The notes under the pieces were generated by a model. That model saw nothing but the letters and a program-made list of their open reading frames with translations. It was not told the origin of the DNA and did not search any database. A stretch of 13,502 nucleotides of DNA from a virus (lineage: Duplodnaviria; Heunggongvirae; Uroviricota; Caudoviricetes): positions 1 through 13,502 of IMG/VR virus record IMGVR_UViG_2526164596_000007, one strand, 5' to 3'. Shown here piece by piece: positions 1 through 13,502 of the stretch; positions within the stretch are counted from its first letter, which is position 1; each line of letters begins with the position of its first letter. Both the position numbers and the translations under genes were made by a program.

Positions 1-577
1 AACAAGGGGAAATTTGCGCCTGGATCGCACGAATAAACGGTTCGAAGGAGCGATGCGTGATTTGTTGCTGAATAAAACTTTTATCCAGCATGACGCGGGT
101 GAAAAGACCATCAAAAACCGCTTTCATTGTGCTATTACCTGCTCCCAAATTGCCTAACACAAGGGGATACATTTGCGATAAGGATAAAAGATCGCGATTA
201 TCTTTTCCTTCATTGAGATGCGGGTAATTCTCATTAATCAACAGTTCAATAAACGGATATTTTAATAGTTCGCCTGCGTAATTATCCCTCTCTAATAATA
301 ATGTAGCCACTTGTGGCGTTAAATTAAGCCAGGCAAAGAGTTTATGTTGAATAAAAAAATGTTGGCATGATTTTAGTAATTCCAACTGCTCTGAAAATAA
401 TTGCCAATGTTGCTCCTCGGTAAGTTGCGCTATAACCCGACTCGTCGGGATACGCACCGTGCCATCTTCACTGGAGAAATGGGTAATTAACTCAACGCCG
501 ACAAGGAGTTGCTGGTTATCTCTTATCGGCAGGAAATAGCAATCAGAATGATAAAGATTCTCCAAAAAAATCTTCAT
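1..577 (-). CDS. ydiV: Anti-FlhDC factor YdiV (EAL-like), partial; 3' end lies beyond the window start
   Basis: Reverse-strand translation from the ATG at 577..575 reads MKIFLENLYHSDCYFLPIRDNQQLLVGVELIT..., matching my recollection of E. coli YdiV. The open frame runs to the window edge. Not in the ORF track because no stop codon falls inside the window. Confidence 0.8.
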   Translation of the reverse strand, partial: MKIFLENLYHSDCYFLPIRDNQQLLVGVELITHFSSEDGTVRIPTSRVIAQLTEEQHWQLFSEQLELLKSCQHFFIQHKLFAWLNLTPQVATLLLERDNYAGELLKYPFIELLINENYPHLNEGKDNRDLLSLSQMYPLVLGNLGAGNSTMKAVFDGLFTRVMLDKSFIQQQITHRSFEPFIRAIQAQISPC

Positions 578-783
578 GGTAACCGTCCCTCTCGAAGGAT
601 GTTTTTCAGTATCCGGCTAAAAGGGATGAGGCCATAAGACATAACAATTACAGAAGGAGTAACTTTCATTTGTTCCATGTTAACCACTTTTTCAGGGGTC
701 CTTTTTTTAGATTATCCTGATTATAAACGAATAATCCATTTACGGAATTTTTGTCTGCAAAATACTACTGTATTCAGGAGTAA

Positions 784-816
784 ATGGACGGCGATGTATC
801 ATCGCCGTCCATTTTT
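784..816. terminator. Perfect 13-bp inverted repeat (784-796 / 800-812, 3-nt loop) followed by T5 on the plus strand, just 3' of nlpC
   Basis: Seen in sequence: atggacggcgatg-tat-catcgccgtccat then ttttt. The A-run/T-run arrangement favours plus-strand termination, but it may act bidirectionally at the end of nlpC. Confidence 0.4.
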
Positions 817-823
817 CGACATA

Positions 824-1288
824 CTAGATTCGTCTCGCCTGCCAGAAATTTTTCTGCCAATAGACATTATCAAGTGAGGAACGCATCACTCCCTTGCTGG
901 TAGAGGCGTGGATAAATTGGTTGTTGGTATCGTAAATACCTACATGCAAACCATTTTGTCCGGACCCCGTTTTGAAAAAGACCAGGTCACCAGGCAGCAA
1001 CTCGTCTTTATCAATTTGCGTGCCGATAGAGGCTTGTTCTTTGGTTTCTCGGGGCAGCTGCAAATCGAAACGATCGCGCATCGTTACAACCACAAATCCC
1101 GAACAGTCCACACCGCGCCGCGTCATGCCACCATAACGATACGGCGTGCCATGCCAGCTTTGTAGCTGGTCGTTCAAACCGGCAATAACGGTAATCGAAT
1201 CAGAAAGTCTGGCATTTGGCGGCGGTGCTTTATGGTGGCTACACCCGGCCAGAAACAGTGCTGTGATCAAAATAAGGCAGAAACGCAT
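824..1288 (-). CDS. nlpC: NlpC/P60-family lipoprotein NlpC
   Basis: 154-aa ORF with a lipoprotein signal and lipobox (LFLAGC) and an NlpC/P60-like Cys motif (GVDCSGFV). Its position downstream of btuD matches the E. coli K-12 gene order. Confidence 0.9.
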   Translation of the reverse strand: MRFCLILITALFLAGCSHHKAPPPNARLSDSITVIAGLNDQLQSWHGTPYRYGGMTRRGVDCSGFVVVTMRDRFDLQLPRETKEQASIGTQIDKDELLPGDLVFFKTGSGQNGLHVGIYDTNNQFIHASTSKGVMRSSLDNVYWQKNFWQARRI

Positions 1289-1365
1289 TCCGTACGGTTC
1301 CTCTGTTTTTTATTCTTGCATTAATTTAGCGTCGTAATTACCCGATTTTCAAGATACTAATGAAA

Positions 1366-2115
1366 TCAGATGGTCGAAATCAGCATTCTGTGACCTTCGA
1401 TATCCAGACGGCGAAAATTCATCCCATAGGCCTGCGCCAGATTTGGCGGCGTGAGCACCTCTTCTCTGCGTCCACTGGCCAGCATTTTTCCACCTTTTAG
1501 CAACCACGCCCGATGCGCATGACGCAATGTGTGGTTGAGATCGTGACTGCTCATCACAATCGCCAGTCCTTGCTGACACAGAGCGCTCAGAATTTTGTCT
1601 AACGCACTTTGTTGCGCAACATCAAGACTGTTCATCGGCTCATCAAGAAGCAGCAATTGACCTGCGGGATTGGCTTGTGGTGTGATTTGCAGCACCACCG
1701 CAGCAAGACGTACGCGTTGCCATTCACCGCCGGAAAGTTGATTGGTGCTACGTCCGAGTTTGTCATCAAGAGCCAGCGCCCCTGCGACATCATTCAGTAG
1801 TTCGGTACGCGTTTTATCGTGCTGATGCAGTGTCAGGTAGTGCCAGACCGGCATTGCAAACGGCGGCGTCTGCTGTTGTGAAAGATAGGCGCGATGCAGC
1901 GCGAGTTTTGTTGCGGACCATGCTTCCAGGGGTTGCCCCGCGAACTGAATGCTTCCCTTACCGCTGGTCATTCCGGCCATTCGTGCAAGCAAGGTACTCT
2001 TACCCGCGCCATTCGGCCCCACCAGATGCAGGATCTCCCCAGCCCGAACCTCGCCAGAAAGTGGCCCCAGGCGGGTAGATTCCGCAACATCCTGTAACTG
2101 CATCACAATAGACAT
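1366..2115 (-). CDS. btuD: Vitamin B12 ABC transporter ATP-binding subunit BtuD
   Basis: 249 aa with Walker A (GPNGAGKST), ABC signature (LSGGEWQR) and Walker B (LLLLDEP). Sits in the expected btuCED context. Confidence 0.95.
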
Positions 2116-2666
2116 TATTTTGCCAACGCCAGTTTAATGCTTTCCATCACAATGGGGTCTTCCGGCGTCATATCCGGGGAAAAACGCTGGATGACCAATC
2201 CGTCCCTGCCAACTAAAAATTTCTCAAAATTCCATAAAATATCATCAGGGTACAGCGGTGCACGACCTTTGCTGACCATACGGGCATAGAATCCGCTCTC
2301 TTCCGGCGCGACTGCGGTCGGCGCTGCGGCAATCAATTTTTGATACAGCGGATGGCGTCCTTCGCCATTAACTTCAATCTTACTGAACATCGGGAACGTC
2401 ACCCCCCATGTGGTGGTACAGTAAGTTTTAATCTCTTCATCGCTGCCCGGTTCTTGTTCCAGAAACTGGTTGCACGGGAATCCCAGCACCACAAAACCTC
2501 GATCGGCCCAGGCTTTCTGAATATTCTCCAACTGCTCATATTGCGGCGTTAAGCCACACTTTGAGGCGACATTGACAATCAACAGCACATTACCGGCGTA
2601 CTTCTCCAGCGTGGTCACTTCACCGTCGATATCTTTCACTACGGTCGTCAGAATGGAATCTTGCAT
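2115..2666 (-). CDS. btuE: Glutathione peroxidase-family protein BtuE
   Basis: 183 aa with a GPx-like active-site region ([23 protein letters not shown]). Its stop shares base 2115 with the btuD start. Confidence 0.95.
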
Positions 2667-2728
2667 CGTTTCTCCTGGGTGTGGTCAGTAAAAATCTTAG
2701 CTTTTAATCATAGACCGTCTTTTTGCGG

Positions 2729-3709
2729 CTAACGTCCTGCTTTTAACAATAACCAGATAAACACCGGCGCACCCAACGTTGCGGTGACCACGCCAATAGG
2801 CAGCTCTGCGGCAGCTAATGCCAAGCGCGCTACAACATCGGCCAGCAGCAATGCGCTCGCCCCTGCCAGCGCGCAGCCGGGAAGTAATACGCGATGATCG
2901 GTTAAACCACACAACCGAAGAATATGTGGGATCACCAGACCAATAAAGCCGATAGCACCCGCCAGCGCCACACTGACGCCAACCATCCAGCCGGTCGCTG
3001 CCACCAGCACATTGCGCCAGAACCACAGGGGTAAACCCAGTTGCCGCGCCGAGATCTCGCCAAGTGCTAACATATTCATCGGCCTGGACTGACAACAGAT
3101 CCACAACAACACGGGGATCAATGCCAGCATCAGCCAGCTTTGCCGCCAGTCTACGCCGCCAAAACCGCCCATCATCCAGTACATCAGCTGACGTAAATCA
3201 ACAGAGGTGGAAAAGTAGATAGCCCACGTCATTAGTGCGCTACAGATAATCCCTAATGCAACGCCAGCCAGCAATAACCGACTGGTCGAAAGATGACGAC
3301 GGGCGAAACGTAAGAGTATTAAAGTGATGATAAGCGCGCCAGCAATCGCACACAGCCCTAGTGCCCAGTTTGGGAGTTGCCCTTGCCCAAGCAATACCGC
3401 GGCGATAAGCCCTACGCCTGCGCCGTTAGAGACGCCAAGTAGTCCAGGTTCTGCCAGAGGATTTTCAAACAACGCCTGCATTACTGCGCCGGATATAGCC
3501 AGCGCCGCACCAACCAGCAATACAGCCAGCGTACGTGGCAGGCGAATCTGCCAGACGAACAGTTCGCCACGAGGAGAAAACCAGTCACCTGGCGAGATCC
3601 ATTGTTCACCGGCGCAAAGGCTTAAGAGAAGCGCCAGCAGCATCAAAACTGACAGGCATAATAACCAGCGAATATTTTGTCGCTGTTGTTGGCGGGCAAG
3701 TGTCAGCAT
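2729..3709 (-). CDS. btuC: Vitamin B12 ABC transporter permease BtuC
   Basis: 326-aa, highly hydrophobic polytopic membrane protein of the FecCD/BtuC permease type. First gene of the btuCED cluster. Confidence 0.95.
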
Positions 3710-3766
3710 GGTATCCGTTCTGCTGAAGTGTCATGGCGTTGATTTTACGGTGACTCTTCGACAGTG

Positions 3767-3792
3767 AAAAGAAAAAAGGCCGCAGAGCGGCC
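3767..3792 (-). terminator. Rho-independent terminator for leftward (minus-strand) transcription
   Basis: Seen in sequence: GC stem ggccgc-aga-gcggcc (3778-3792) that on the minus strand is followed by a T-rich run (plus-strand A-run 3767-3777). It lies 69 bp upstream of the btuC start, at the junction with the phage-like DNA. Confidence 0.6.
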
Positions 3793-3807
3793 ATAAACAC
3801 AAACAAA

Positions 3808-3820
3808 AATCAATAAGTTA
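3808..3820 (+). promoter_or_regulatory. Candidate IHF-binding site in the putative attL region
   Basis: aatcaataagtta matches the IHF consensus WATCAANNNNTTR exactly and is preceded by an A-tract (3801-3809). It lies between the junction and the integrase-proximal direct repeats. Confidence 0.3.
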
Positions 3821-3881
3821 TATAATTATCAAAGGCTTACAGACACACAAAAACACAGCCAACCACAACAAATAACAGGGA

Positions 3882-3901
3882 TGTGGTCACTTTGTGGATC
3901 A
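3882..3901 (+). repeat. Direct repeats TGTGGTCA / TGTGGATCA spaced 11 bp apart; candidate integrase arm-type binding sites
   Basis: Seen in sequence at 3882-3889 and 3893-3901. They resemble the P2 Int arm-site consensus as I recall it (TGTGGACA direct repeats); that consensus is from memory. Confidence 0.3.
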
Positions 3902-4294
3902 TTCGCTCCCCTCTTTTTCCTTATTTCGTTGAACGCCAATTGCGACACACGTACTAAGCAAATCTTTACATTTCTCTACGTCTTCAGACTTACGCAATTT
4001 GATGCTTTTTACAGACTGCGGGCTACTGTCCGTAGCACGATACATCGTTATTTCAATATCATTTCGGTCTAAGAGTCCCATAATGGCTTTTGCAACCTCC
4101 ACACCCTTCTTCGCGAAATCAAAGAACAGAGCAAGTTTATATGGATTTTCGACGGAAAAAACTTCAATTTTGCTAAAACCAACATCGTGTCGAGAAAAAT
4201 ATTGCTCAACCTCATCTCGAAGTTCTGGATCGCAGACAATGTCTATTCTCCAGTACTGACCTAAATGCAAATCGCTATTAACTGTTTTTTCCAC
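3899..4294 (-). CDS. Hypothetical protein (131 aa from GTG at 4294; 138 aa if the TTG at 4315 is used), translationally coupled downstream of int
   Basis: A strong SD (AAGGAGG, 4306..4300 on the minus strand) overlaps the int stop codon, with an in-frame GTG 5 nt downstream. The ORF is AT-rich relative to the integrase and I recognise no family. Confidence 0.55.
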   Translation of the reverse strand: MEKTVNSDLHLGQYWRIDIVCDPELRDEVEQYFSRHDVGFSKIEVFSVENPYKLALFFDFAKKGVEVAKAIMGLLDRNDIEITMYRATDSSPQSVKSIKLRKSEDVEKCKDLLSTCVAIGVQRNKEKEGSE

Positions 4295-4304
4295 AACATC
4301 CTCC

Positions 4305-5279
4305 TTACCCAGCAATAGGATTAAATCTCACCGCATCCTGCAAGTAATCCGGCGCAAGATGGGCATAAATCATCGTTGTCTGAATCTTTGCGTGCCCCAG
4401 AATTTTCTGGAGCGTCAGAATATTGCCGCCGTTCATCATGAAATGACTGGCGAAGGTGTGGCGCAGCGCATGAACAGCCTGGCCGTCAGGAACATCAGGT
4501 GCGACCGTTTTGATGACATCGCGAACCAATGGATAATCCAGCGTCGGAAACACCAGTTTCCCGCCCCGTTTTTTGATCTTTTCAAACAGGCTTTCAGAAA
4601 TAGGAACGGTACGGTTTTTGCTGTTCTTCGTTTTTGAAAAAGTGATTCGACAATGAAGAACACGGCGCTGCTCCAGTACCGCTACCTCGCCCCATCGCGC
4701 CCCGGTCGACAGAAGGATTTCGACAGCCAGCCGTTCATCGGGATTTTCAGCCAGTGCATCCAGCAACTGAACACATTCAGACTTACTCAGATATCCCATT
4801 TCGCGCTCGTTAACCTTCATTCCTTTAAGGCCTTGAACGGGGTTATCGTTAAGAAAATGGCCGGATGAGATGAGTGCGGTAAACATCGCGCTTAACGCCC
4901 CAATCTCTCGATTTATGGTGCTGGGCTGTATCCCCTGCTCTATCCTGGACACACGTAGCTCGGTGAGCATCGTTGTATTAAGTTTATGCACGCACGGGTC
5001 ATCCATTGCCTCACTCAAGCGCAGCAATTTAAGGCGCGTGTTATGCCCTGACTTCATTAGCTGGCCGTGGTATTTCCACCACAAGTCAATAAGCACTGAC
5101 AGCGGACGGCGATCAATGGAGTTTCCTTTCCACTCATTGTTATGCTGTTGCGCCAGCACCCACCGCTCATATAAAACTGCATCCGATTTCGTTTTAAATT
5201 TTTTACGAATGCGTTTGCCTTTACGCCCCTCCGGGCGCATGTCAAGAAGATACCCTCCCGGAATTGATTTTATGCTCAT
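4305..5279 (-). CDS. int: P2-type tyrosine integrase
   Basis: 324 aa with tyrosine-recombinase box II (HALRHTFASH) and the catalytic Tyr region (TTMIYAHL). Strong end-to-end resemblance to P2 Int (337 aa) as recalled. Confidence 0.9.
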   Translation of the reverse strand: MSIKSIPGGYLLDMRPEGRKGKRIRKKFKTKSDAVLYERWVLAQQHNNEWKGNSIDRRPLSVLIDLWWKYHGQLMKSGHNTRLKLLRLSEAMDDPCVHKLNTTMLTELRVSRIEQGIQPSTINREIGALSAMFTALISSGHFLNDNPVQGLKGMKVNEREMGYLSKSECVQLLDALAENPDERLAVEILLSTGARWGEVAVLEQRRVLHCRITFSKTKNSKNRTVPISESLFEKIKKRGGKLVFPTLDYPLVRDVIKTVAPDVPDGQAVHALRHTFASHFMMNGGNILTLQKILGHAKIQTTMIYAHLAPDYLQDAVRFNPIAG

Positions 5280-5328
5280 TCGTGAAACCCCAGCGTTACA
5301 AGACCACCATGCCCCCAGCGCTCCATGA

Positions 5329-5637
5329 TTAGCCGGGCTGTGTGCCAGTCTTGCGGGGTTTTTGAGAAGGCGATGTGCTTTTTAGCCCATCAGGGGAGAG
5401 AGACGGACTGATCTGCCCAGCAGCCTCATTTGTTTTTCCCGTCATAAGCCAATTCATGTACTTAAAAAAGCGAGGGTGATTAACAATCTTGATAAGCACT
5501 TCGCCACCTATGTTTTCAATCCGCCCCGTTTCATAACGACGCAAAGTGCCGATAGGCACATCAATCAGGCCGCAAAATTCTTCGCGCGTTAAATCCTCTG
5601 ATTCACGAATCACTCTAATTTTTTCACCGATAAGCAT
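5329..5637 (-). CDS. P2 C-like immunity repressor (HTH)
   Basis: 102 aa (P2 C is 99 aa as recalled), with an HTH-like N-terminus (LTREEFCGLIDVPIGTLRRYETG). It sits upstream of int on the same strand and is divergent from the cox-like gene across a palindromic operator region. Confidence 0.7.
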   Translation of the reverse strand: MLIGEKIRVIRESEDLTREEFCGLIDVPIGTLRRYETGRIENIGGEVLIKIVNHPRFFKYMNWLMTGKTNEAAGQISPSLSPDGLKSTSPSQKPRKTGTQPG

Positions 5638-5649
5638 TGACAGTGTTCC

Positions 5650-5695
5650 TATAAGTACACTAAGCTTGCGCGCAAGGTGTACTTATAAGTACACC
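5650..5695. promoter_or_regulatory. Lysis/lysogeny switch operator: three half-sites of tataagtacac (direct, inverted, direct), including a perfect 20-bp palindrome
   Basis: Seen in sequence: tataagtacac at 5650-5660, its reverse complement at 5677-5687, and a third copy at 5685-5695. The stretch 5676-5695 (ggtgtacttataagtacacc) is a perfect palindrome and cttgcgcgcaag (5664-5675) is a second one. A TTGACA -35-like hexamer at 5637-5642 lies just upstream. Confidence 0.6.
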
Positions 5696-5733
5696 AAGTC
5701 ACAAACAACCACAGATAGCGCAGGTTATCACAC

Positions 5734-6012
5734 ATGGCAAAAGTCCTGAACACACACGAACAGGCAGACTTTGAGCGTTTAGCAGCGTTCTATCCCTACC
5801 GCGATGAGCATGGGTTACCAGTACTTGAAGAAAGCCTGAAAGATTACGCAAAGCGTACCAACCAAGCTGTTAACACAGTGAAAAGACAGGCTGACAGAGG
5901 TTCAATTCCCATCAACCAGGATGAAAAGAACTCAAGACGCACAGTAAATCTCTTCGCTCTTTTCCTGAAAACAATCAGGAGCGCAGAAAAATACGTGCAG
6001 ATGACAAAATAA
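5734..6012 (+). CDS. Cox/Apl-like small DNA-binding protein (putative excisionase and switch regulator)
   Basis: 92 aa (P2 Cox is 91 aa as recalled). It is the first gene of the rightward operon, divergent from the repressor, and has an HTH-like segment (YAKRTNQAVNTVKRQADRGSIP). Confidence 0.5.
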   Translation: MAKVLNTHEQADFERLAAFYPYRDEHGLPVLEESLKDYAKRTNQAVNTVKRQADRGSIPINQDEKNSRRTVNLFALFLKTIRSAEKYVQMTK

Positions 6013-6026
6013 CGAGGTGTCATTTT

Positions 6027-6365
6027 ATGCTGAAGCAACGCCGTAATTTTCGTACCGGAACAGAACGCCACGCTAACCGTTTCACTACCAGTGCATCACG
6101 CAGCAACATCCGCTACAGCCTGAGTGATACACACGCAACGCCGGATGGCTACCCAGTAAAACAAATCGGCGAGCACGCCTGGCTGATTGAGAAAGCTGGA
6201 ATCGTGATCCACAAATGCCCACGCAATCCGTTTACCGGAAACCGCATTTTTGCATTGAGCTGTGGCGACAATCAGTTCGGGCAGGATTTCACATTATACG
6301 AAGCACTTCGCACGGTTGATCGTCTGCTTCGCGGACAAAGTTTTATTAAACAGGTTGATTTATAA
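6027..6365 (+). CDS. Hypothetical early-region protein (112 aa)
   Basis: SD GAGGTG precedes the ATG; the ORF is packed tightly behind the cox-like gene in the same orientation. Confidence 0.55.
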   Translation: MLKQRRNFRTGTERHANRFTTSASRSNIRYSLSDTHATPDGYPVKQIGEHAWLIEKAGIVIHKCPRNPFTGNRIFALSCGDNQFGQDFTLYEALRTVDRLLRGQSFIKQVDL

Positions 6366-6375
6366 CAGGTGCTTT

Positions 6376-6663
6376 ATGACCAAAGAGTATGCACAAGGTG
6401 TATTTATCCGTTTTATTGATTTTCGCGGTGAACTGTTATTACGTGCATCCGCTATTGACGGAGTGACTCCGGCGGGTAAAAACGGAGCCGACGAAGCCAC
6501 TTACGTTTATCTGAACGGCACGCGACTACTTGTGGAGCTTCCGTACCAGACCGTTCGCGAAGCCATTAACGAAGCTGAAAAAGCGCGCCAGGCTAATAGC
6601 GATGAACCCTATATCGAAATTATTTGTATGGATTCAGAAGCTGAAATTAAGAAAGCAGATTAA
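6376..6663 (+). CDS. Hypothetical early-region protein (95 aa)
   Basis: SD AGGTG at 6366-6370 sits 5 nt before the ATG at 6376. The longer track ORF starting at 6262 overlaps the previous gene and is less likely. Confidence 0.55.
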   Translation: MTKEYAQGVFIRFIDFRGELLLRASAIDGVTPAGKNGADEATYVYLNGTRLLVELPYQTVREAINEAEKARQANSDEPYIEIICMDSEAEIKKAD

Positions 6664-6674
6664 AGGGCGTTGTG

Positions 6675-6917
6675 ATGGGCAAAGAATATAAAACTCTCAT
6701 TAACAAAGCACTTGAGCGTTTTTATTTTCGCTTAAGCGCATCAGGCGCTCATGCTGAACGTGCAGCCCGTGACTCATTGACCAGGGCAATCCGGAGTTTG
6801 TATGACGTCGCTTTTTACGCTGATGATCTGGATGCACTTAACGAACTTTCCGAGCTGATCTGTGCCGCAGAATGCGGGGAACATATTGAACCGTATAAGC
6901 TGGGGAATATCGCATGA
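6675..6917 (+). CDS. Hypothetical early-region protein (80 aa)
   Basis: SD AAGGG at 6663-6667; start is the ATG at 6675 (a GTG at 6672 is also possible). Confidence 0.5.
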   Translation: MGKEYKTLINKALERFYFRLSASGAHAERAARDSLTRAIRSLYDVAFYADDLDALNELSELICAAECGEHIEPYKLGNIA

Positions 6918-7027
6918 GTATATTTATCTCATGGCTTGTTCTGATTATTTCGGTGGCCTGCGCCATTGGGATTATGCGAATTATTCATTCAGTAAAAAAG
7001 ATTGAACGCTTTTTCACTGACGAATAA
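6914..7027 (+). CDS. Small predicted membrane peptide (37 aa, one hydrophobic helix)
   Basis: Translation MSIFISWLVLIISVACAIGIMRIIHSVKKIERFFTDE. Its ATG overlaps the upstream stop (ATGA). Below the ORF-track size cutoff; AT-rich. Confidence 0.4.
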   Translation: MSIFISWLVLIISVACAIGIMRIIHSVKKIERFFTDE

Positions 7028-7116
7028 CAGCACAAACAAAACACCAGATTAAATAAGAAAACGTGAAAACAATCCGCATTCGCGGAGGCATCCACATATA
7101 TAAACACGAGGTTAGC

Positions 7117-7380
7117 ATGCTCAGGACAAATCAAAAAATACTGAAGGATGCGTATTTTGATAGGGGGCAGGATCTCGCAAAGCTTTGTGCCGCGCTAGAA
7201 GAGATACATCAGTATTTCGCTGATATTGAAGATGATATAGCTAACAAAGGTACCAGTATTTCATCAGCGAACAGAGCACATTTTATGGGCTTTAATATTT
7301 TTACAGCAATAAGAACATTAAAAGAACAAAAAGAAGAAATAGAAAAGCTCAAACACGGACATAAAGCTAAGAGAGTGTAA
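7117..7380 (+). CDS. Hypothetical protein (87 aa), AT-rich
   Basis: SD GAGGT at 7107-7111 sits 5 nt before the ATG at 7117 (the track ORF starts at a GTG at 7063). Visibly AT-rich and lysine/glutamate-rich. Confidence 0.5.
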   Translation: MLRTNQKILKDAYFDRGQDLAKLCAALEEIHQYFADIEDDIANKGTSISSANRAHFMGFNIFTAIRTLKEQKEEIEKLKHGHKAKRV

Positions 7381-7583
7381 TGGCAATTAAGCATTTTCCC
7401 GTCGTTCGTTTCACCTCCAGAGGGCGCGAATACGAGGTCGACGAACGCCTGATTACCACTATCGACAAACATCGTTCGGAAAAGGATGCACACCACATCT
7501 ACCTCACTGACGGCACTTACTTCTGCGCCACTAATGTGGCGCGGGTAAACCTTATCCGACAGGTACAGGAGCCACGCAGATGA
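7380..7583 (+). CDS. Hypothetical protein (67 aa)
   Basis: Start overlaps the upstream stop (TAATG), indicating translational coupling. Confidence 0.5.
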   Translation: MAIKHFPVVRFTSRGREYEVDERLITTIDKHRSEKDAHHIYLTDGTYFCATNVARVNLIRQVQEPRR

Positions 7584-7846
7584 CCATTCTGGACTACATC
7601 GCTACTCATCCGGGGTGTAGCGGCGGAGAGATCGCCGCAGCACTGAATACCCCAACCACAGCCATTAATGCTGAGTTACGCCGACTTTGGCGCGGCGGCT
7701 TAGTCATCAGAACAAACCGCAGCACAGGTGGTCGCGCTCGCAAAACAGGAGGCCAGGCTTCTTACCACGTAAACCCGATGCCGTTCGGGTGTAGCAATCC
7801 ACTTACTCACATGTTTAACCAGCTACTGAAGGAAGCCAGAGCATGA
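7580..7846 (+). CDS. Hypothetical protein (88 aa), possible winged-helix DNA-binding protein
   Basis: ATGA overlap with the upstream gene. The segment ILDYIATHPGCSGGEIAAALNTPTTAINAELRRLWRGGLV resembles a wHTH domain; this is a by-eye judgement. Confidence 0.5.
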   Translation: MTILDYIATHPGCSGGEIAAALNTPTTAINAELRRLWRGGLVIRTNRSTGGRARKTGGQASYHVNPMPFGCSNPLTHMFNQLLKEARA

Positions 7847-8142
7847 GCACCATCAACCACCAGAAGCTACGCGAACTGGCATTTGCCCTGCAACGAATGG
7901 CAACGCCTCAAAAATTACTGGCATTTCGCGCAATGCTCTCGCCGTCTGCTGTGCTGGCACTGCTGGATGAGCTGGAGCACGCCAGAACCACGGCTCCTGC
8001 CATTCGCCTGACGCTCCATCATGAAATCGCTGATTTCTGCGCGACGTTGGAGTCGCCGGGCGAACCGGAAACGCCGGAAGCAATACAGCAAGAGCTGCTG
8101 CAACGCATTGACAAGGTTTTTGATTTTTTTCTGAACCAGTAA
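7843..8142 (+). CDS. Hypothetical protein (99 aa)
   Basis: ATGA overlap with the upstream gene; last gene before the non-coding island. Confidence 0.55.
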   Translation: MSTINHQKLRELAFALQRMATPQKLLAFRAMLSPSAVLALLDELEHARTTAPAIRLTLHHEIADFCATLESPGEPETPEAIQQELLQRIDKVFDFFLNQ

Positions 8143-8464
8143 GAAACCAGAACATGCACACACAAAAAAACCGCTTGCCATGCCGCAATCAGTCAGGTTA
8201 CATTTCCACTGCACCTCATAAAACGGGTGCCGGGTTTCGCAGCCTGCTGACTACACAAGCGCACAACCGCGCCAGCGGTTTTTTTGTGCGTACTGTATTG
8301 CCACGTTTTTTTCGCGTCAGAATTATGGCGGGGCGTACGGGGCCGACTTCGGTCGGGCCGGGTTCTTGTGTAGCCGGTACTGCGAACCTCGTACGTCTCG
8401 CCACCCACAGTTTCGCAGCTCTGGATGGTGAGTTTTCACAACTTACTACACAAGGGGCCACACC
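8143..8464 (+). other. GC-rich, hairpin-rich non-coding island (candidate structured RNA or regulatory element)
   Basis: No plausible ORF. Contains a 15-bp inverted repeat (8161-8175 / 8274-8288) flanking about 100 bp, a C(UUCG)G tetraloop hairpin at 8343-8356, and a short hairpin plus T7 run at 8267-8285. Confidence 0.35.
8267..8285 (+). terminator. Putative weak intrinsic terminator (ccgc-gcca-gcgg followed by T7)
   Basis: Seen in sequence. The stem is short (4-6 bp), so the call is tentative. Confidence 0.35.
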
Positions 8465-8695
8465 ATGGCAAACCGCAAACAGCACCGCGCTATCGCGGAG
8501 CGTCGTCACATCCAGACTGAAATCAACCGCAGACTTTTCCGCGCATCACGCGTCGCGCAAATCATGCACATCAATATGCTGCATGAGCGCAGCCACGCAC
8601 TATCAAACATCTATTCCGCCGCTGTTTTCAGCTATCTGGCGGATGATCTGCACGAGCTTCAACAGCTCATCCAGCAGCAAAACAAACTCCATTAA
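8465..8695 (+). CDS. Hypothetical protein (76 aa)
   Basis: SD AGGGG at 8452-8456 precedes the ATG; charged, helical-looking sequence with no cysteines, so not Ogr-like. Confidence 0.5.
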   Translation: MANRKQHRAIAERRHIQTEINRRLFRASRVAQIMHINMLHERSHALSNIYSAAVFSYLADDLHELQQLIQQQNKLH

Positions 8696-8767
8696 TTCCT
8701 GTTCCGGGCCCTTCCTGCACCTTGCGGCGGGAGGCCTTCGCACATCTGTAACCAGAGGATTGCCGCA

Positions 8768-9133
8768 ATGATTCTCGCCAACGACTTTCTTGAATACCTG
8801 CTCAACACAGAGCGTGATCTTGCCGTTCGCGTGCGTGAACGTTATGACATGTACCTGAAATCCCTGCCTGTACCGCAGCTCGCTGACGGAAAGATTGTTA
8901 TTGATGGTCGCTACATGATTGACAGCCACGAGGGAAATTACAGGCTTTACCGCATTGAAGGTGGCACCCCGTCCGTTATTGGCATTTACCAGCGCCCATC
9001 CTCTGCAATCGTCGATGTGATTGCCGACAGCATCCGCATCACACATCGCCATGCCGACACAGAAGACACCGTGCTGGAAATTCAGCGGCTGGCTACAGTC
9101 TGCCGCGACACCCTGAATGGCATGACGAAGTAA
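8768..9133 (+). CDS. Hypothetical protein (121 aa)
   Basis: SD GAGGA at 8753-8757; ends 7 bp before the replicase start. Confidence 0.55.
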   Translation: MILANDFLEYLLNTERDLAVRVRERYDMYLKSLPVPQLADGKIVIDGRYMIDSHEGNYRLYRIEGGTPSVIGIYQRPSSAIVDVIADSIRITHRHADTEDTVLEIQRLATVCRDTLNGMTK

Positions 9134-9139
9134 ATCACT

Positions 9140-12013
9140 ATGACGGCAGAGTACATCAGGGACTGGCAACAACCGCGCCACGCAGTGGGGCGTGAAGGAA
9201 CGGGGATCCCCGCTCCTGAATCCGCGCTTTCCTCCTGGCTGGATGCCTACCGGGTAGAGAACGAGCGCCGCCAGGAAATGGCTGATGCGGCGTTCTCCGC
9301 AACGCCGCTGGGCAACCTGATTAATAAAAGCCTGGACGCACAGGAAAAACAGGACAAAACCATCACACTGGCAGGAGACGCCAGAAAACAGGCACGCGGC
9401 GCGGTGGATGAAGCCATGGCCTCGCTGCGCCTGCTGCCGTCCTATCTGCGCGATCCGCTTATTCGCCACCTCTCCTTCCTGCGCAAAAAACAGGAAGCCG
9501 ATCGCCGGAAAGGCAAAAAGAGCTGGCAGGCGGAACGCTATGCACGCGGAACCCTGCGCAAAATATTCGAACGTCTGGATCGCACTGACAGACACTGGCT
9601 GACACCGGGTTACCGCTCCCTTGCTGGACGCGAACGCCTGGACGATTTGCTTTACCTGCCGCAGCTCAACAAACACCAGATACAGACGCTGGCCACCATG
9701 ACAGCGGCGATGTTCAGCAGCACCTTCGAAAAACTCTGCGATGGCTTTGGCGCGACCGATGGCGAACTGACCATGGATGTAACGCTGAAGGCGTATCAGA
9801 TGCTGGCCCGCATGGCGTTACACCTGCACATCATGCCTCCACATTATGACGCACTGACAACAGATAAAGACCGGAGGAACGAACCGGACACGGAGCTGCT
9901 GCCGGGCGCAATCCTTCGCCTGACCTGTGCGGAATGGTGGAAACGCAAACTGTGGCTGTTACGTTGCGAGTGGAGAGAAGAACAACTCCGCGCCGCCTGT
10001 CTGGTTTCCAGAAAAACATCACCCTATCTGAGCCAGGACGCGTTAAGCGAGTTTCGCGCACAGCGCGAGAAAACACGCGATTTCCTGAAAAGTTTCATGC
10101 TGGAAAACGAAGACGGGTTCACGATTGATCTCGAGACAGTGTATTACGCGGGAGTAAGTAACCCGGTTCACCGTAAGGCAGAAATGATGGCCACCATGAA
10201 GGGGCTGGAACTTCTGGCCGAAGCCCGTGGCGACAAAGCGGTGTTTCTGACTGTCACCTGCCCGTCAAAATACCACGCCACAACAGAGAACGGTCATCCG
10301 AATCCCAAATGGAACGGGGCCACCATGCGCGACTCCAGCGATTACCTGGTTAACACGTTTTTTGCGGCGGTCCGCAAAAAACTGAACCGCGACGGCCTGC
10401 GCTGGTATGGCATCCGCACGGTGGAGCCTCACCATGACGGCACCGTGCACTGGCACATGATGGTCTTTGCTCATCCGGAAGAAATCGACAGCATCGTGGC
10501 CATCACCCGCGATATTGCCATTCAGGAAGACCGCCACGAGCTGGGCAATGATATTACTCCGCGCTTTAAGGCGGAGTATGTCGACGGCTCAAAAGGCACA
10601 CCAACCAGCTACATCGCCACCTACATCGGAAAGAACCTGGACAGCCGCGCCGTGGATGGCATCGACCCGAAAACGGGCAAGCCACGCGTTGACCACGAAA
10701 CCGGAAAATCAATGGCCGAGAGTGTGGAACGCGCCATCGGCTGGGCGCGCCTTCACCGGGTCCGCCAGTTCCAGTTCTTTGGCATCCCCTCCCGTCAGGT
10801 ATGGCGTGAACTCCGCCGCCTTGCCAGCCAGATGGCACGCAACCCGGAAGGCCCACAACGGCTGAAGGATGATGCAATGGATGCGGTACTCGCTGCCGCT
10901 GATGCCGGGTGTTTTGCCACCTACATTGAGAAACAGGGCGGCGTACTTGTTCCACGCAAAGACTACCTGATTCGCACCGCCTACGACCTCGCAGATGAGC
11001 TGAACGATTACGGCGAACAGAGCGTACAGATTTACGGGATCTGGTCACCACTCATCGGGGAATCCTCCCGTGTGTGCACGCACCCGGATAACTGGAAGCT
11101 GGTAAGACGTAAACCGGAAGCGGAAGACAGCACCCGCGAAAATGGTTTTGACCTTCAGGGCGGCCCTGCCGCCCCTTGGACTCGTGGCAATAACTGTCCC
11201 CGTGTACAGGAAACGGACAACAACGGGACAGAACAGCCGGAAGAACGGCCAGCACCGTGGCCGCAGCTCCCTGACGGCGTTGAAGTGAACGAATGGATGC
11301 GCTCACTGAAACGGCACGAACGCCGGGCGCTGATGCGTTCGCTTCGTGACAAACAGGCAAAAAACAGCAGTGATGAAATGCAGAGCTGGACACAGAGCCG
11401 CAAACAGCAGCGGCCTTTGCCTGATAACCACGAATTACTCGCTAAAGAATGGCGGGAGTCTGCTGAAGCTCTCGGCCTGCATATCGGTGAACAGCAGATG
11501 CAGCACCTGTTACGGGGCGGCAGTCTGTACGTTGACGGCAGCATCATTGCACCGCAGGGATTTGAAATTGTACGCAAACCGGATACCCGACCGGACAGCC
11601 GGATCACGCAGCTCTGGCAGCGCCTGAGCCGTAACCACGGCGTAAGCAGCACGGAGATCCGCCATAACCCGGTCGCCAGCTATCTGGCACAGCTGGGGGC
11701 ATCAGACCACGAAGCCGCCGCACGCCTGGCATCCACACTTCAGCAGGACCAGAACACCATGAAAACACCCGTTACCGTGCTTTCTGACATGCTGCGCGCC
11801 ATCCGCGACGCAGAGCACGCACAGAGAATCAGTGAAACCACTGAACGCGCCCGCCGCAAAGCAGATCTGCTGCGGGGTAGCCTGACCAGTGGAAACAAAA
11901 AACAGACAGAAACGGGATTCACAAATCCCGTAAATGAGCAAAAACGCGCCGCGATATATGAAGCGCGCACAAAACAGGCAAAAACGGGATTTCAGAATCC
12001 CGTAAACGATTAA
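9140..12013 (+). CDS. HUH rolling-circle replication initiator, P2 gpA family, with an extended C-terminus
   Basis: 957 aa. HUH motif HWH at residues 437-439 (VHWHMMVF) and a paired-tyrosine motif YIATYIGK (Y491/Y495) analogous to phiX174 gpA / P2 A. Positioned as the last early gene, as in P2. Confidence 0.85.
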   Translation: MTAEYIRDWQQPRHAVGREGTGIPAPESALSSWLDAYRVENERRQEMADAAFSATPLGNLINKSLDAQEKQDKTITLAGDARKQARGAVDEAMASLRLLPSYLRDPLIRHLSFLRKKQEADRRKGKKSWQAERYARGTLRKIFERLDRTDRHWLTPGYRSLAGRERLDDLLYLPQLNKHQIQTLATMTAAMFSSTFEKLCDGFGATDGELTMDVTLKAYQMLARMALHLHIMPPHYDALTTDKDRRNEPDTELLPGAILRLTCAEWWKRKLWLLRCEWREEQLRAACLVSRKTSPYLSQDALSEFRAQREKTRDFLKSFMLENEDGFTIDLETVYYAGVSNPVHRKAEMMATMKGLELLAEARGDKAVFLTVTCPSKYHATTENGHPNPKWNGATMRDSSDYLVNTFFAAVRKKLNRDGLRWYGIRTVEPHHDGTVHWHMMVFAHPEEIDSIVAITRDIAIQEDRHELGNDITPRFKAEYVDGSKGTPTSYIATYIGKNLDSRAVDGIDPKTGKPRVDHETGKSMAESVERAIGWARLHRVRQFQFFGIPSRQVWRELRRLASQMARNPEGPQRLKDDAMDAVLAAADAGCFATYIEKQGGVLVPRKDYLIRTAYDLADELNDYGEQSVQIYGIWSPLIGESSRVCTHPDNWKLVRRKPEAEDSTRENGFDLQGGPAAPWTRGNNCPRVQETDNNGTEQPEERPAPWPQLPDGVEVNEWMRSLKRHERRALMRSLRDKQAKNSSDEMQSWTQSRKQQRPLPDNHELLAKEWRESAEALGLHIGEQQMQHLLRGGSLYVDGSIIAPQGFEIVRKPDTRPDSRITQLWQRLSRNHGVSSTEIRHNPVASYLAQLGASDHEAAARLASTLQQDQNTMKTPVTVLSDMLRAIRDAEHAQRISETTERARRKADLLRGSLTSGNKKQTETGFTNPVNEQKRAAIYEARTKQAKTGFQNPVND
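11912..12003. repeat. Two copies of the palindrome acgggatt-N4-aatcccgt, 72 bp apart, inside the 3' end of the replicase ORF and just upstream of parM; candidate parC-like centromere and ParR operator
   Basis: Seen in sequence at 11912-11931 and 11984-12003. A possible parM promoter (TTCAGA at 11990-11995, ATTAAT at 12013-12018) overlaps the second copy. Confidence 0.45.
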
Positions 12014-12037
12014 TTAATCAACATAAGGAAAAGCGAC

Positions 12038-12998
12038 ATGAAAATTTGTATCGATGACGGCTCCACCAACATCAAGCTGGCATGGACTGAGAACGGCGAA
12101 CGCCGCAACGCCATCAGCCCGAACAGCTTCAAGTCGGAATGGTCTGCGCCGTTCGGTGACACGCAGCCCGCGAACTACATGCTTGATGGCGTGCGCTATG
12201 GTTTTGATCCGGTCAGCGATCGCTTTGTCCAGACGACCGACACGCAATACCAGTACAGCGATGTGAATGTCATTGCCATTCATCACGCGCTGGTCAAATC
12301 AGGCATCACACCACAGGAAGTGGATGTGGTTGTCACCCTGCCACTGAGCGAATATTTCGACACAAACGCACAGCCGGACATGGCCAACATCAACCGCAAA
12401 AAAGCAAACGTCGTGCGCCCGGTGGCGTACCAGAACGGAAAAAGCATTCACTATCCGTAACGTACGGGTTATGCCTGAATCCATTCCGGCTGGCTTTAAG
12501 GCACTGGCTGACATGAGTCCGTTTGAATCCCTGCTGATTGTGGATTTAGGCGGAACCACGCTGGATGTGGCAAAGGTTCAGGGACAACTGGCAGGTATCA
12601 GCCAGGTGTTTTGCGATCCACACGTAGGCGTTTCCCTGATGGCCGATGCCGTACTGTCGGTGATGGCCACTAACGGTATGCGTACCAGTCACCACATCGC
12701 CAATACCATTATCGAACATCGCCATGATGAAGCCTGGCTGCGCCAGCACATCCACAATGACGCGCATTACGCCAGCCTGATGGCGGTTATTCGTGAAAAG
12801 GAAGAAACACTGAAACAACGCGTGATCCGCGCGCTGGCGGGTTTTTCGGGTTACGGGCGGGTGATGGTTGTCGGTGGCGGGGCGGAGATTGTGGCACCCG
12901 CTATCCGCGAAGCCTGCGGAGTTAATGCGACTTTCATCGCGGACGGGGTGCCACAGTTTGCTCTGGTTAATGGGCTGTACGCAATGGACAAGGAGTAA
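12038..12998 (+). pseudogene. parM: ParM/StbA-type actin-like segregation ATPase, interrupted by a +1 frameshift in an A5 run
   Basis: N-terminus MKICIDDGSTNIKLAW matches R1 ParM (MLVFIDDGSTNIKLQW) as recalled. Phosphate-2 (LLIVDLGGTTLD) and adenosine (VMVVGGGAEI) motifs are present. The frame shifts from the 12038 frame to the 12471 frame at aaaaa (12439-12443); removing one A restores a continuous ORF of about 319 aa. Confidence 0.8.
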
Positions 12999-13002
12999 AC
13001 CA

Positions 13003-13314
13003 ATGACGACACCAACCAGACGGATAAGTTTCTATCTGAAGCCCGCCGCCGTCAAGAACGAAGGCGAAGCATGCGCCTGGCTGGACAGCCTTACACCAGA
13101 AGCCCGCAAAAGTGGTCAACGTGTGGCTTTTCTGGCCGGGCTGGCACTACTGAAAATGAATCCGGCAGAGGCTTACCGACTGGCTGCATGGGCTGATTAT
13201 GAGGCGTTATCAGTGACACAAACCAGGACAGAACGCCCCGCGTCACAGCCAGTATCAGCCGCACAGATAACCAGTCAGATGGCCGGAAATATCCGGGCGT
13301 TATTTCCCGAATAA
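13003..13314 (+). CDS. parR: ParR-like centromere-binding protein (103 aa)
   Basis: SD AGGAG at 12991-12995 sits 7 nt before the ATG. The N-terminal segment (RRISFYLKP...LDSL...AFLAGLAL) and C-terminal IRALFPE resemble R1 ParR as recalled. Lies immediately downstream of parM, as in parMRC loci. Confidence 0.65.
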   Translation: MTTPTRRISFYLKPAAVKNEGEACAWLDSLTPEARKSGQRVAFLAGLALLKMNPAEAYRLAAWADYEALSVTQTRTERPASQPVSAAQITSQMAGNIRALFPE

Positions 13315-13377
13315 CACAACATCAGGGCGCATCCGCCCGGATGACTTTAACCCGGGAGCATAAACAAGGGGGACACA

Positions 13378-13502
13378 ATGCAACACATTGACAGAGAAAA
13401 AGCGCAGCGACTGATTGAGCGGATGGAAGCGCTGGCGAAAGAAGAAAATGTCAACATCCAAAAAATAGCTGAATGTGGCCAGATAGTTCTTCGTCGTGAA
13501 AA
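13378..13502 (+). CDS. Hypothetical protein, 5' portion only (runs off the window end)
   Basis: SD-like aaggggga upstream of the ATG at 13378; the frame stays open to the window end (MQHIDREKAQRLIERMEALAKEENVNIQKIAECGQIVLRRE...). Confidence 0.4.
   Translation, partial: MQHIDREKAQRLIERMEALAKEENVNIQKIAECGQIVLRRE

Follow-up and report, generated by a model that had tools for sequence, protein, structure and literature searches.

A conserved gene between int and the attachment site of a P2-like prophage, a possible exclusion or defence cargo

Results

We analysed a 13,502-nucleotide (nt) stretch of DNA (IMG/VR record IMGVR_UViG_2526164596_000007, positions 1 to 13,502; hereafter the window), which begins in the Escherichia coli chromosome and runs into the left end of a P2-like prophage. 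The subject of this work is a gene on the minus strand at 3899..4294, lying between the prophage attachment site and int, the gene of a P2-type tyrosine integrase of 324 amino acids (aa) (4305..5279, minus strand; PF24624 Int_N, 1.6e-28; PF00589 Phage_integrase, 1.8e-19; phrog_1). It is a 131-aa coding sequence (CDS) with a GTG start and a TGA stop, identified by its sequence, its match to PHROG 14142 and the RefSeq CDS WP_000416306.1. An earlier note, made from the letters of this DNA, had described an open reading frame (ORF) that follows int, with AAGGAGG over the int stop codon and an in-frame GTG 5 nt further on. The sequence bears this out and places the arrangement on the minus strand, which the note had left unstated. 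On that strand the junction between both genes reads GCT GGG TAA GGAGGATGTT GTG. The int stop TAA is at 4307-4305, the Shine-Dalgarno (SD) sequence AAGGAGG at 4300..4306 (minus strand) overlaps it and ends 5 nt 5′ of the GTG, and the GTG itself, at 4294-4292, is found 10 nt past the int stop.

The longest ORF that can be drawn mechanically is slightly larger, spanning 3899..4315 (minus strand) with 138 codons from a TTG at 4315, a start that is not conserved. Because the PHROG 14142 alignment, the RefSeq annotation and all homologues begin at the GTG codon, the sequence comparisons point to this codon, and hence to the 131-aa form, as the start in use. Indeed, profile positions 1-128 of the 128 in PHROG 14142 cover residues 8-135 of the 138-aa ORF (E=2e-69), RefSeq annotates the 131-aa form (WP_000416306.1), and the homologues all begin at the conserved start codon, for which the Salmonella copy uses ATG. 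The G+C content of the gene is 40%, versus 49% for int and 57% for gpA, the replication endonuclease gene of the prophage (9140-12013, plus strand), and at third codon positions (GC3) the corresponding values are 36%, 54% and 64%. The gene is therefore AT-rich, as had been claimed. Its product had also been called acidic, which holds only mildly (pI 5.3; 24 D+E versus 20 K+R, net charge -4).

Reading frame, start and length (126-133 aa) are kept across 45 full-length relatives, down to 27% identity, and pairwise ratios of non-synonymous to synonymous substitution (dN/dS) lie between 0.13 and 0.26 at a dS of about 1. Because the frame and the start are conserved and dN/dS is low, the comparison shows that the ORF is a real protein-coding gene, and the same two results rule out that it is a chance ORF. 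A frame not conserved in homologues was what the earlier note had named as speaking against its gene; the frame holds in all 45. Over the same pairs int has a dN/dS of 0.08 at equal dS (1.0-1.2 for both genes), meaning that at the protein level the ORF changes two to three times faster than int. The equal dS of ORF and int, in turn, argues for a long shared travel of both genes.

The earlier note had recognised no family for this protein. In this it missed the membership in PHROG 14142, the function of which is itself unassigned: the entry carries no annotation, and membership is silent on function. The distant members P0013, P0050 and P0054 match the PHROG 14142 profile too, and distant relatives match it at 1e-44 to 1e-67. 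An exhaustive hidden Markov model (HMM) search of 1.84 billion representatives yielded only 12 matches. One of them, a highly repetitive protein of 2029 aa (P0019), reached E=1e-7 through eight repeated weak stretches, and we regard it as a false positive caused by these repeats. Searching 5.8 billion clusters with a profile yielded 68 clusters, and the matches with a named source all come from Enterobacterales (Escherichia, Salmonella, Citrobacter, Enterobacter, Klebsiella/Raoultella, Yokenella, Kosakonia, Yersinia, Pectobacterium, Pantoea and Symbiopectobacterium). The exact protein of the window occurs on at least 1000 public contigs, and its carriers include enteropathogenic E. coli (EPEC) E2348/69, O104:H4 outbreak strains, O26:H11 11368, O111:H8 and O55:H7 CB9615. 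Using tblastn we found no copy in 50,697 isolated-phage records and none in 72,556 plasmids, while megablast of the locus against phages returned a weak int match only. The family was seen here exclusively in chromosomal P2-like prophages of Enterobacterales. A search of the literature for the RefSeq accessions and the PHROG identifier found no paper.

Damaged copies were observed as well. A scan of species-representative genomes returned one truncated copy, in Symbiopectobacterium, beside insertion sequence (IS) elements. This copy lacks its 5′ part (L007, 5971-6252); 8 bp separate it from the ogr stop, and IS transposase genes precede it, in what looks like a degraded prophage in a symbiont genome. 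Besides, many contigs of E. coli and Salmonella have annotated genes that correspond to 57-aa C-terminal remnants of the family (L025-L027, 5001-5174), showing that the gene can decay while the prophage end persists.

The prophage is integrated into the terminator of ihfA, beside btuC (2729..3709, minus strand; FecCD, 1e-86; annotated btuC), which is the host flank outside the element. Similarity to prophage-free E. coli genomes stops at 3792, and GGCCGCTCTGCGGCC followed by its T run (3792-3767, minus strand) is repeated in CB9615 at the opposite end of the prophage, immediately behind ihfA. Since this repeat stands directly after ihfA at attR, and given its terminator score, the att core at attL (3767..3792, minus strand; GGCCGCTCTGCGGCC TTTTTTCTTT, six G-C pairs plus a T run) is the ihfA intrinsic terminator. 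Going downstream from int and the ORF, no other terminator comes before it. The target is in this case the terminator of a gene for a subunit of integration host factor (IHF), and it is rebuilt at attR (L005, ~15970-15995). IHF is a host factor used in P2-type integration. Sequences resembling the IHF consensus were seen by eye in both arms, with AATCAATAAGTTA at window positions 3808-3820.

Between the core and the P′ arm lies an attP spacer of about 88 nt (3793..3881, no strand assigned), a role that its position suggests; the matching 86-nt stretch in P2 contains Cox-binding sites. It is followed by putative P′ arm-type Int-binding direct repeats, TGTGGTCA-ctt-TGTGGATCA (3882..3901, plus strand), which we propose on the basis of similarity and conservation. 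The annotated P′ arm of P2 reads TGTGGACA-ctg-TGTGGACA, and TGATCCACAAAGTGACCAC (19-20 nt) is shared without any change by the window, the divergent copy L002, the Salmonella copy L016 and L006, a locus with an alternative cargo, while the flanking DNA diverges. The second of these repeats overlaps the stop codon of the ORF (3899-3901), and the repeats are where attP ends on its outer side and where a cargo slot has its distal limit. The map of P2 (AF063097) places the core at 24356-24383, the Cox sites at 24399-24472, the P′ arm at 24470-24496 and the end of int at 24462, so that the Int site of the P′ arm overlaps the 3′ end of int and leaves no gap. That P2 has no gene between int and attP, as stated in the earlier note, is hence correct for AF063097. 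In the window, a 406-bp segment with the ORF in it fills precisely the interval from the int stop to the attP edge.

We surveyed this slot in 5426 complete E. coli genomes. The arm-plus-int query is matched in 306 of them, 282 of which cover at least 80% of it. The ORF is carried by 159 genomes in one copy each, and all inspected copies are behind int at btuC, while 86 genomes carry an unrelated pair of genes encoding 110 and 145 aa. Further cargos are a 132-aa gene with a DUF1640/CCDC90-like coiled-coil protein (STEC388) and a CCDC90-family gene (TUM1880). There are at least five unrelated cargos in E. coli behind arm-plus-int DNA that is 97.7-99.8% identical, with integrases 98-99% identical in DNA, and the Int behind the 110+145 cargo (L006) has 99.1% protein identity to that of the window. 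The first gene of each alternative cargo begins no more than 32 nt from the int stop, and in three of the four inspected it begins 2 nt past this stop or overlaps it. We read the ORF as a cargo of this slot because the contents vary behind a 99.1%-identical Int, because the cargos begin near the int stop and because its G+C content is low. The accessory position claimed in the earlier note, and the presence or absence at the same site that it had proposed to check, are both well illustrated by these genomes.

The alternative cargos are two-gene cassettes (L006, 5359-6128; L023, 3944-4982; L024, 1610-2557). The first genes encode small proteins with a Cys motif (110, 132 or 166 aa), one of which has a marginal zinc-ribbon match, and the second genes a 145-aa coiled-coil protein, DUF1640/CCDC90-like. 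Comparison of the family profile with the first genes of three alternative cargos by hhalign revealed no relationship (probability <1%). The alternative cargos matched none of the defence systems catalogued in PADLOC, and they are equally uncharacterised candidates.

On the minus strand no terminator-like site was found from 5637 to 3792, that is, from the repressor gene to the att core, nor any sigma-70-like site in 3900-5800 (by consensus scan only). Because no such site separates the repressor gene from the att core, the simplest reading of the sequence is that the ORF is co-expressed with int. The gene 5′ of int encodes a C-type helix-turn-helix (HTH) immunity repressor (5329..5637, minus strand; HTH_3/HTH_31, phrog_147) and, by analogy with Pc of P2, presumably heads a C-int-ORF transcript; the layout of P2 is likewise Pc-C-int. 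The junction with int is also kept in relatives. AAGGAGGATGTTGTG is identical in the divergent copy L002 (77% DNA identity), in which the SD still lies over the stop and the gene overlaps int by 17 nt, and the Salmonella copy L016 has TAAGG-N8-ATG, with a 10-nt gap from int to the ORF and a weaker SD. The proposal that the gene is joined to int, for which the earlier note relied on the SD over the int stop, is thereby extended to a geometry kept in L002 and nearly kept in L016.

The mechanism that we propose is as follows. Having no promoter-like site of its own, the ORF would be read from the lysogenic C-int transcript, starting at a P2-type Pc and ending at the att-core terminator. Ribosomes loading at the SD over the int stop would translate it, with dependence on, or help from, the ribosomes that finish int. 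Expression of the repressor/integrase operon would then always yield the protein, both while lysogeny is established and while it is maintained, and the protein is probably present together with the integrase in lysogens. Regarding the hallmarks of classical 'moron' genes, which are autonomous cassettes of promoter, gene and terminator, the deviating base composition is there, and a promoter of its own directly upstream is not, according to the consensus scan only.

The family can be divided into two subfamilies. In the close one (56-100% protein identity; E. coli and Salmonella) the order is always int, ORF and attL at btuC. In the distant one (27-40% identity), the inspected full-length copies are all at the opposite, ogr end of the prophage (L008, L010-L015, L017-L021 and L025-L033 were the distant loci inspected). 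There, the host gene is followed by the att core, an IHF-type site with TCCAC arm repeats, a hairpin and the ORF, which converges on hok/gef or on ogr-gpD. These copies come directly after the terminator of the host gene and are co-directional with it, and at two of these loci, L008 and L013, only about 20 nt separate the end of the hairpin from the start codon. The att sites used number at least eight (raiA, dsbB, yccJ, mlaA, fabF-like, the prpB region, ytfP/tamB and yegQ-like), and prophages at raiA and at dsbB share one identical protein (P0047). The convergent neighbour is often hok/gef, and PemK/YafO toxin genes are also near these prophage ends. Drawn on the circular map of the phage, the gene is in both lineages between int and ogr and points the same way; what differs is attP, which is downstream of the gene in the close subfamily and upstream of it in the distant one.

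That the gene always adjoins the outer edge of attP, on either flank and in the same orientation, could mean that its product is an accessory of site-specific recombination, modulating Int, Cox or attP (directionality, efficiency or insulation of attP), and the coupling to and co-divergence with int in this lineage (dS 1.0-1.2 for both) would fit such a role. We nevertheless judge it very unlikely. Unrelated cargos go with the same attP and with a 99.1%-identical Int, both of which function there, P2 has the same attP architecture and core-to-P′ spacing without the gene, the identical P0047 is found at two att sites (raiA and dsbB), and the truncated 57-aa remnants persist in prophages. Moreover, the protein matches no HTH or other DNA-binding family, and a Cox-like gene is already in place at 5734-6012 (plus strand; PHROG match). 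A recombination directionality factor or excisionase (Cox, Xis) was rejected in particular, since no HTH, Xis or Cox family matched, the Cox-like gene is a separate one and the ORF is replaceable behind the same int and att. An antirepressor of the 186 Tum/DinI type was also rejected, as there is no DinI or Tum family among the Pfam or PHROG matches. Here the analogy was positional, a Tum/DinI-type gene presumably occupying the interval from D/ogr to attP in the 186-type map.

The structure of the protein was modelled from a 45-sequence alignment (pLDDT 81.9, pTM 0.74). The order of elements in the model is beta-alpha-beta-beta-alpha-beta-beta-alpha-beta, for which the predicted fold is a ferredoxin-like core (beta-alpha-beta-beta-alpha-beta) with a beta-alpha-beta extension, and the product is predicted to be a small soluble alpha/beta protein. 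Residues F33, A68, M72, G73, L74, R77, E81, L100, C109 and L112 are invariant, and H10, C21, C45, D79, T88, K99, R101 and D105 nearly so, with no recognisable catalytic or DNA-binding motif in the protein. Sequence searches of the PDB with two profiles returned only noise (E>0.3), and the fold searches returned no informative match, the hits being heterogeneous and at noise level.

The core that we deduce from the order of secondary-structure elements would be compatible with a ferredoxin-type fold of the ACT/PII/CutA kind, and hence with a lysogenic-conversion factor unrelated to phages, a ligand- or protein-binding regulator that alters host physiology. The genes raiA and yccJ are stationary-phase genes, and distant copies lie directly downstream of them and co-directional with them, which is in line with this view. 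Against it, the fold matches are those just described, marginal ACT/LytR_C matches appear in only 1-3 of the 45 members, and terminator hairpins stand between the gene and the host genes. We regard this explanation as distinctly unlikely.

One member of the family (P0096, Citrobacter freundii CAM7602060.1) bears the source name 'PDDEXK family nuclease', and D79, E81, K99 and R101 are conserved acidic and basic residues, so that a minimal PD-(D/E)xK nuclease effector comes to mind. However, PDDEXK families of Pfam are matched by none of the 45 members, even at E<=5, the alignment has no conserved (D/E)xK triplet, and the other named members, about 60, are all labelled 'hypothetical'. We rejected this candidate, having found no conserved D...(D/E)xK motif on a restriction-endonuclease-like alpha-beta-beta-beta-alpha-beta core, and give it hardly any credence.

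The remainder of the window agrees with the setting described above. The host genes nlpC, btuD, btuE and btuC occupy 824-3709 (minus strand), and the prophage part carries small early genes besides int, the repressor gene, the Cox-like gene and gpA. CB9615 is annotated alike, and a complete P2-type set of head, tail and lysis genes continues there up to the far end of the prophage, where ogr and a hok/gef gene adjoin ihfA. The gpA product of the window has 957 aa versus 761 aa in P2 (A gene 28034-30319, AF063097), and in CB9615 gpA is followed by ParM-like and plasmid-partition-like genes (L001, 28348-29623) at the classical hotspot between gpA and the portal gene. In the early region, Rfam places isrK (8211-8285, plus strand, 65 bits) and a C4 antisense RNA (8321-8408, plus strand, 83 bits) side by side, just 5′ of an ORF that RefSeq names 'derepression protein' in related prophages. 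Together they are a P1/P7-style C4-antirepressor immunity module within a P2-like phage, and the long ORFs listed over the isrK/C4 stretch (for example 8154-8771) are probably spurious. In the region of the ORF, there was no match to an RNA family of Rfam. Among the phage 'auxiliary metabolic genes' of P2-like viruses, a 2026 survey counts a BtuC permease (PMC13100340); as a common P2-like prophage adjoins host btuC, this call could be an artefact of the prophage boundary.

Discussion

We tentatively propose that the ORF is a dispensable cargo gene of the P2-like prophage, expressed in the lysogen and with a lysogenic-conversion role of the exclusion or defence type, comparable to that of tin, old and fun of P2, and we put the chances of this somewhat short of even. 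It would occupy the only permissive gap, from the int stop to the outer P′ edge of attP. In favour of the proposal, int-att is a reported minor defence hotspot, toxin genes are found in the neighbourhood and the protein evolves two to three times faster than int. The benefit to the lysogen would be interference with superinfecting phages or satellites; this is a guess from context only, which we hold as loosely as the role itself or slightly more so. The protein would most likely act by binding another macromolecule.

Several results weigh against the proposal. The distant subfamily is on the ogr side, behind a hairpin terminator and not behind int, and the coupling to int is therefore not family-wide. 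The query has no Pfam or NCBIfam family (Pfam was also tried on all 45 members) and no match among 5027 PADLOC models; with the 45 members PADLOC gave a single marginal match (E=0.015). Finally, the other cargos of the slot are also unrecognised, which makes guilt by association weak for this lineage. We considered as well a broader proposal, namely that PHROG 14142 is a family of single-protein anti-phage or anti-defence systems that has gone unrecognised and whose fold is without solved relatives, wired to C-int in one lineage and on the opposite flank of attP in another, integration switching its transcriptional context. This seems to us possible and rather doubtful.

The same layout admits a different timing. 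The gene would be on a transcript that is active early after infection in P2-type phages, and a counter-defence or host-takeover protein made from the Pc transcript right after infection could protect the incoming genome, its presence in lysogens being a by-product. Such a role would suit a small, soluble and mildly acidic protein that carries no motif, changes faster than int and belongs to a family confined to one phage group. On the other hand, neither its sequence nor its fold resembles solved or viral proteins, the anti-defence proteins in PDB or BFVD among them, and its net charge is only -4, unlike that of DNA mimics. The int gene of P2 is weakly expressed, and coupling to a weakly expressed recombinase gene would be an odd route to a fast stoichiometric inhibitor. 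Altogether we consider counter-defence unlikely.

Returning to the cargo proposal, it would have consequences for the repertoire of these phages. If the gene acts in phage exclusion or counter-defence, it represents a compact, single-gene and structurally new module for P2/P4, and the gap between int and attP becomes productive ground for mining, with at least five unrecognised cargos in this prophage lineage alone. The carriers include well-studied pathogens, and testing should hence be easy. If it has no such role, it is one more conserved hypothetical prophage gene. There is also evolutionary interest in how P2-type att modules are rebuilt, given that the gene adjoins attP on either flank depending on the lineage and that the ihfA terminator serves as core.

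Defence hotspots of P2 and P4 have been described (Rousset et al. 2022, PMC9122126; PMC13586616), and a 2026 survey, with 3574 delimited P2-like prophages, reports int-att of these prophages as a minor one, with 3% of the P2 systems (PMC13586616). The ORF shares with this locus type the position between int and att in a P2-like prophage and the variable content, while a recognised anti-phage system is missing (PADLOC-DB v2, 0 families for the query). It is hence an uncharacterised member of an already described locus type and no new kind of system. Like old, tin and Z/fun of P2, it is a non-essential low-G+C gene at a site where content differs between near-identical P2-like prophages. However, the site of old and tin is the interval from gpA to the portal gene and that of fun is among the tail genes, whereas the ORF is in the int-att slot; neither in sequence nor in fold does it resemble a catalogued system, and it would rely on the int transcript instead of a promoter of its own. 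Phage-inducible chromosomal islands (PICI), which are satellites, carry defence cargo between int and att that is mobilised with the element (cited in PMC13586616). The position is the same as that of the ORF, in a different class of element, and the ORF appears in addition to be translationally joined to int. Genes of the lambda rexAB/sieB type are likewise accessory genes riding on a transcript that maintains lysogeny, as the ORF would do; they have no homology to it, and its partner would be int rather than the repressor alone.

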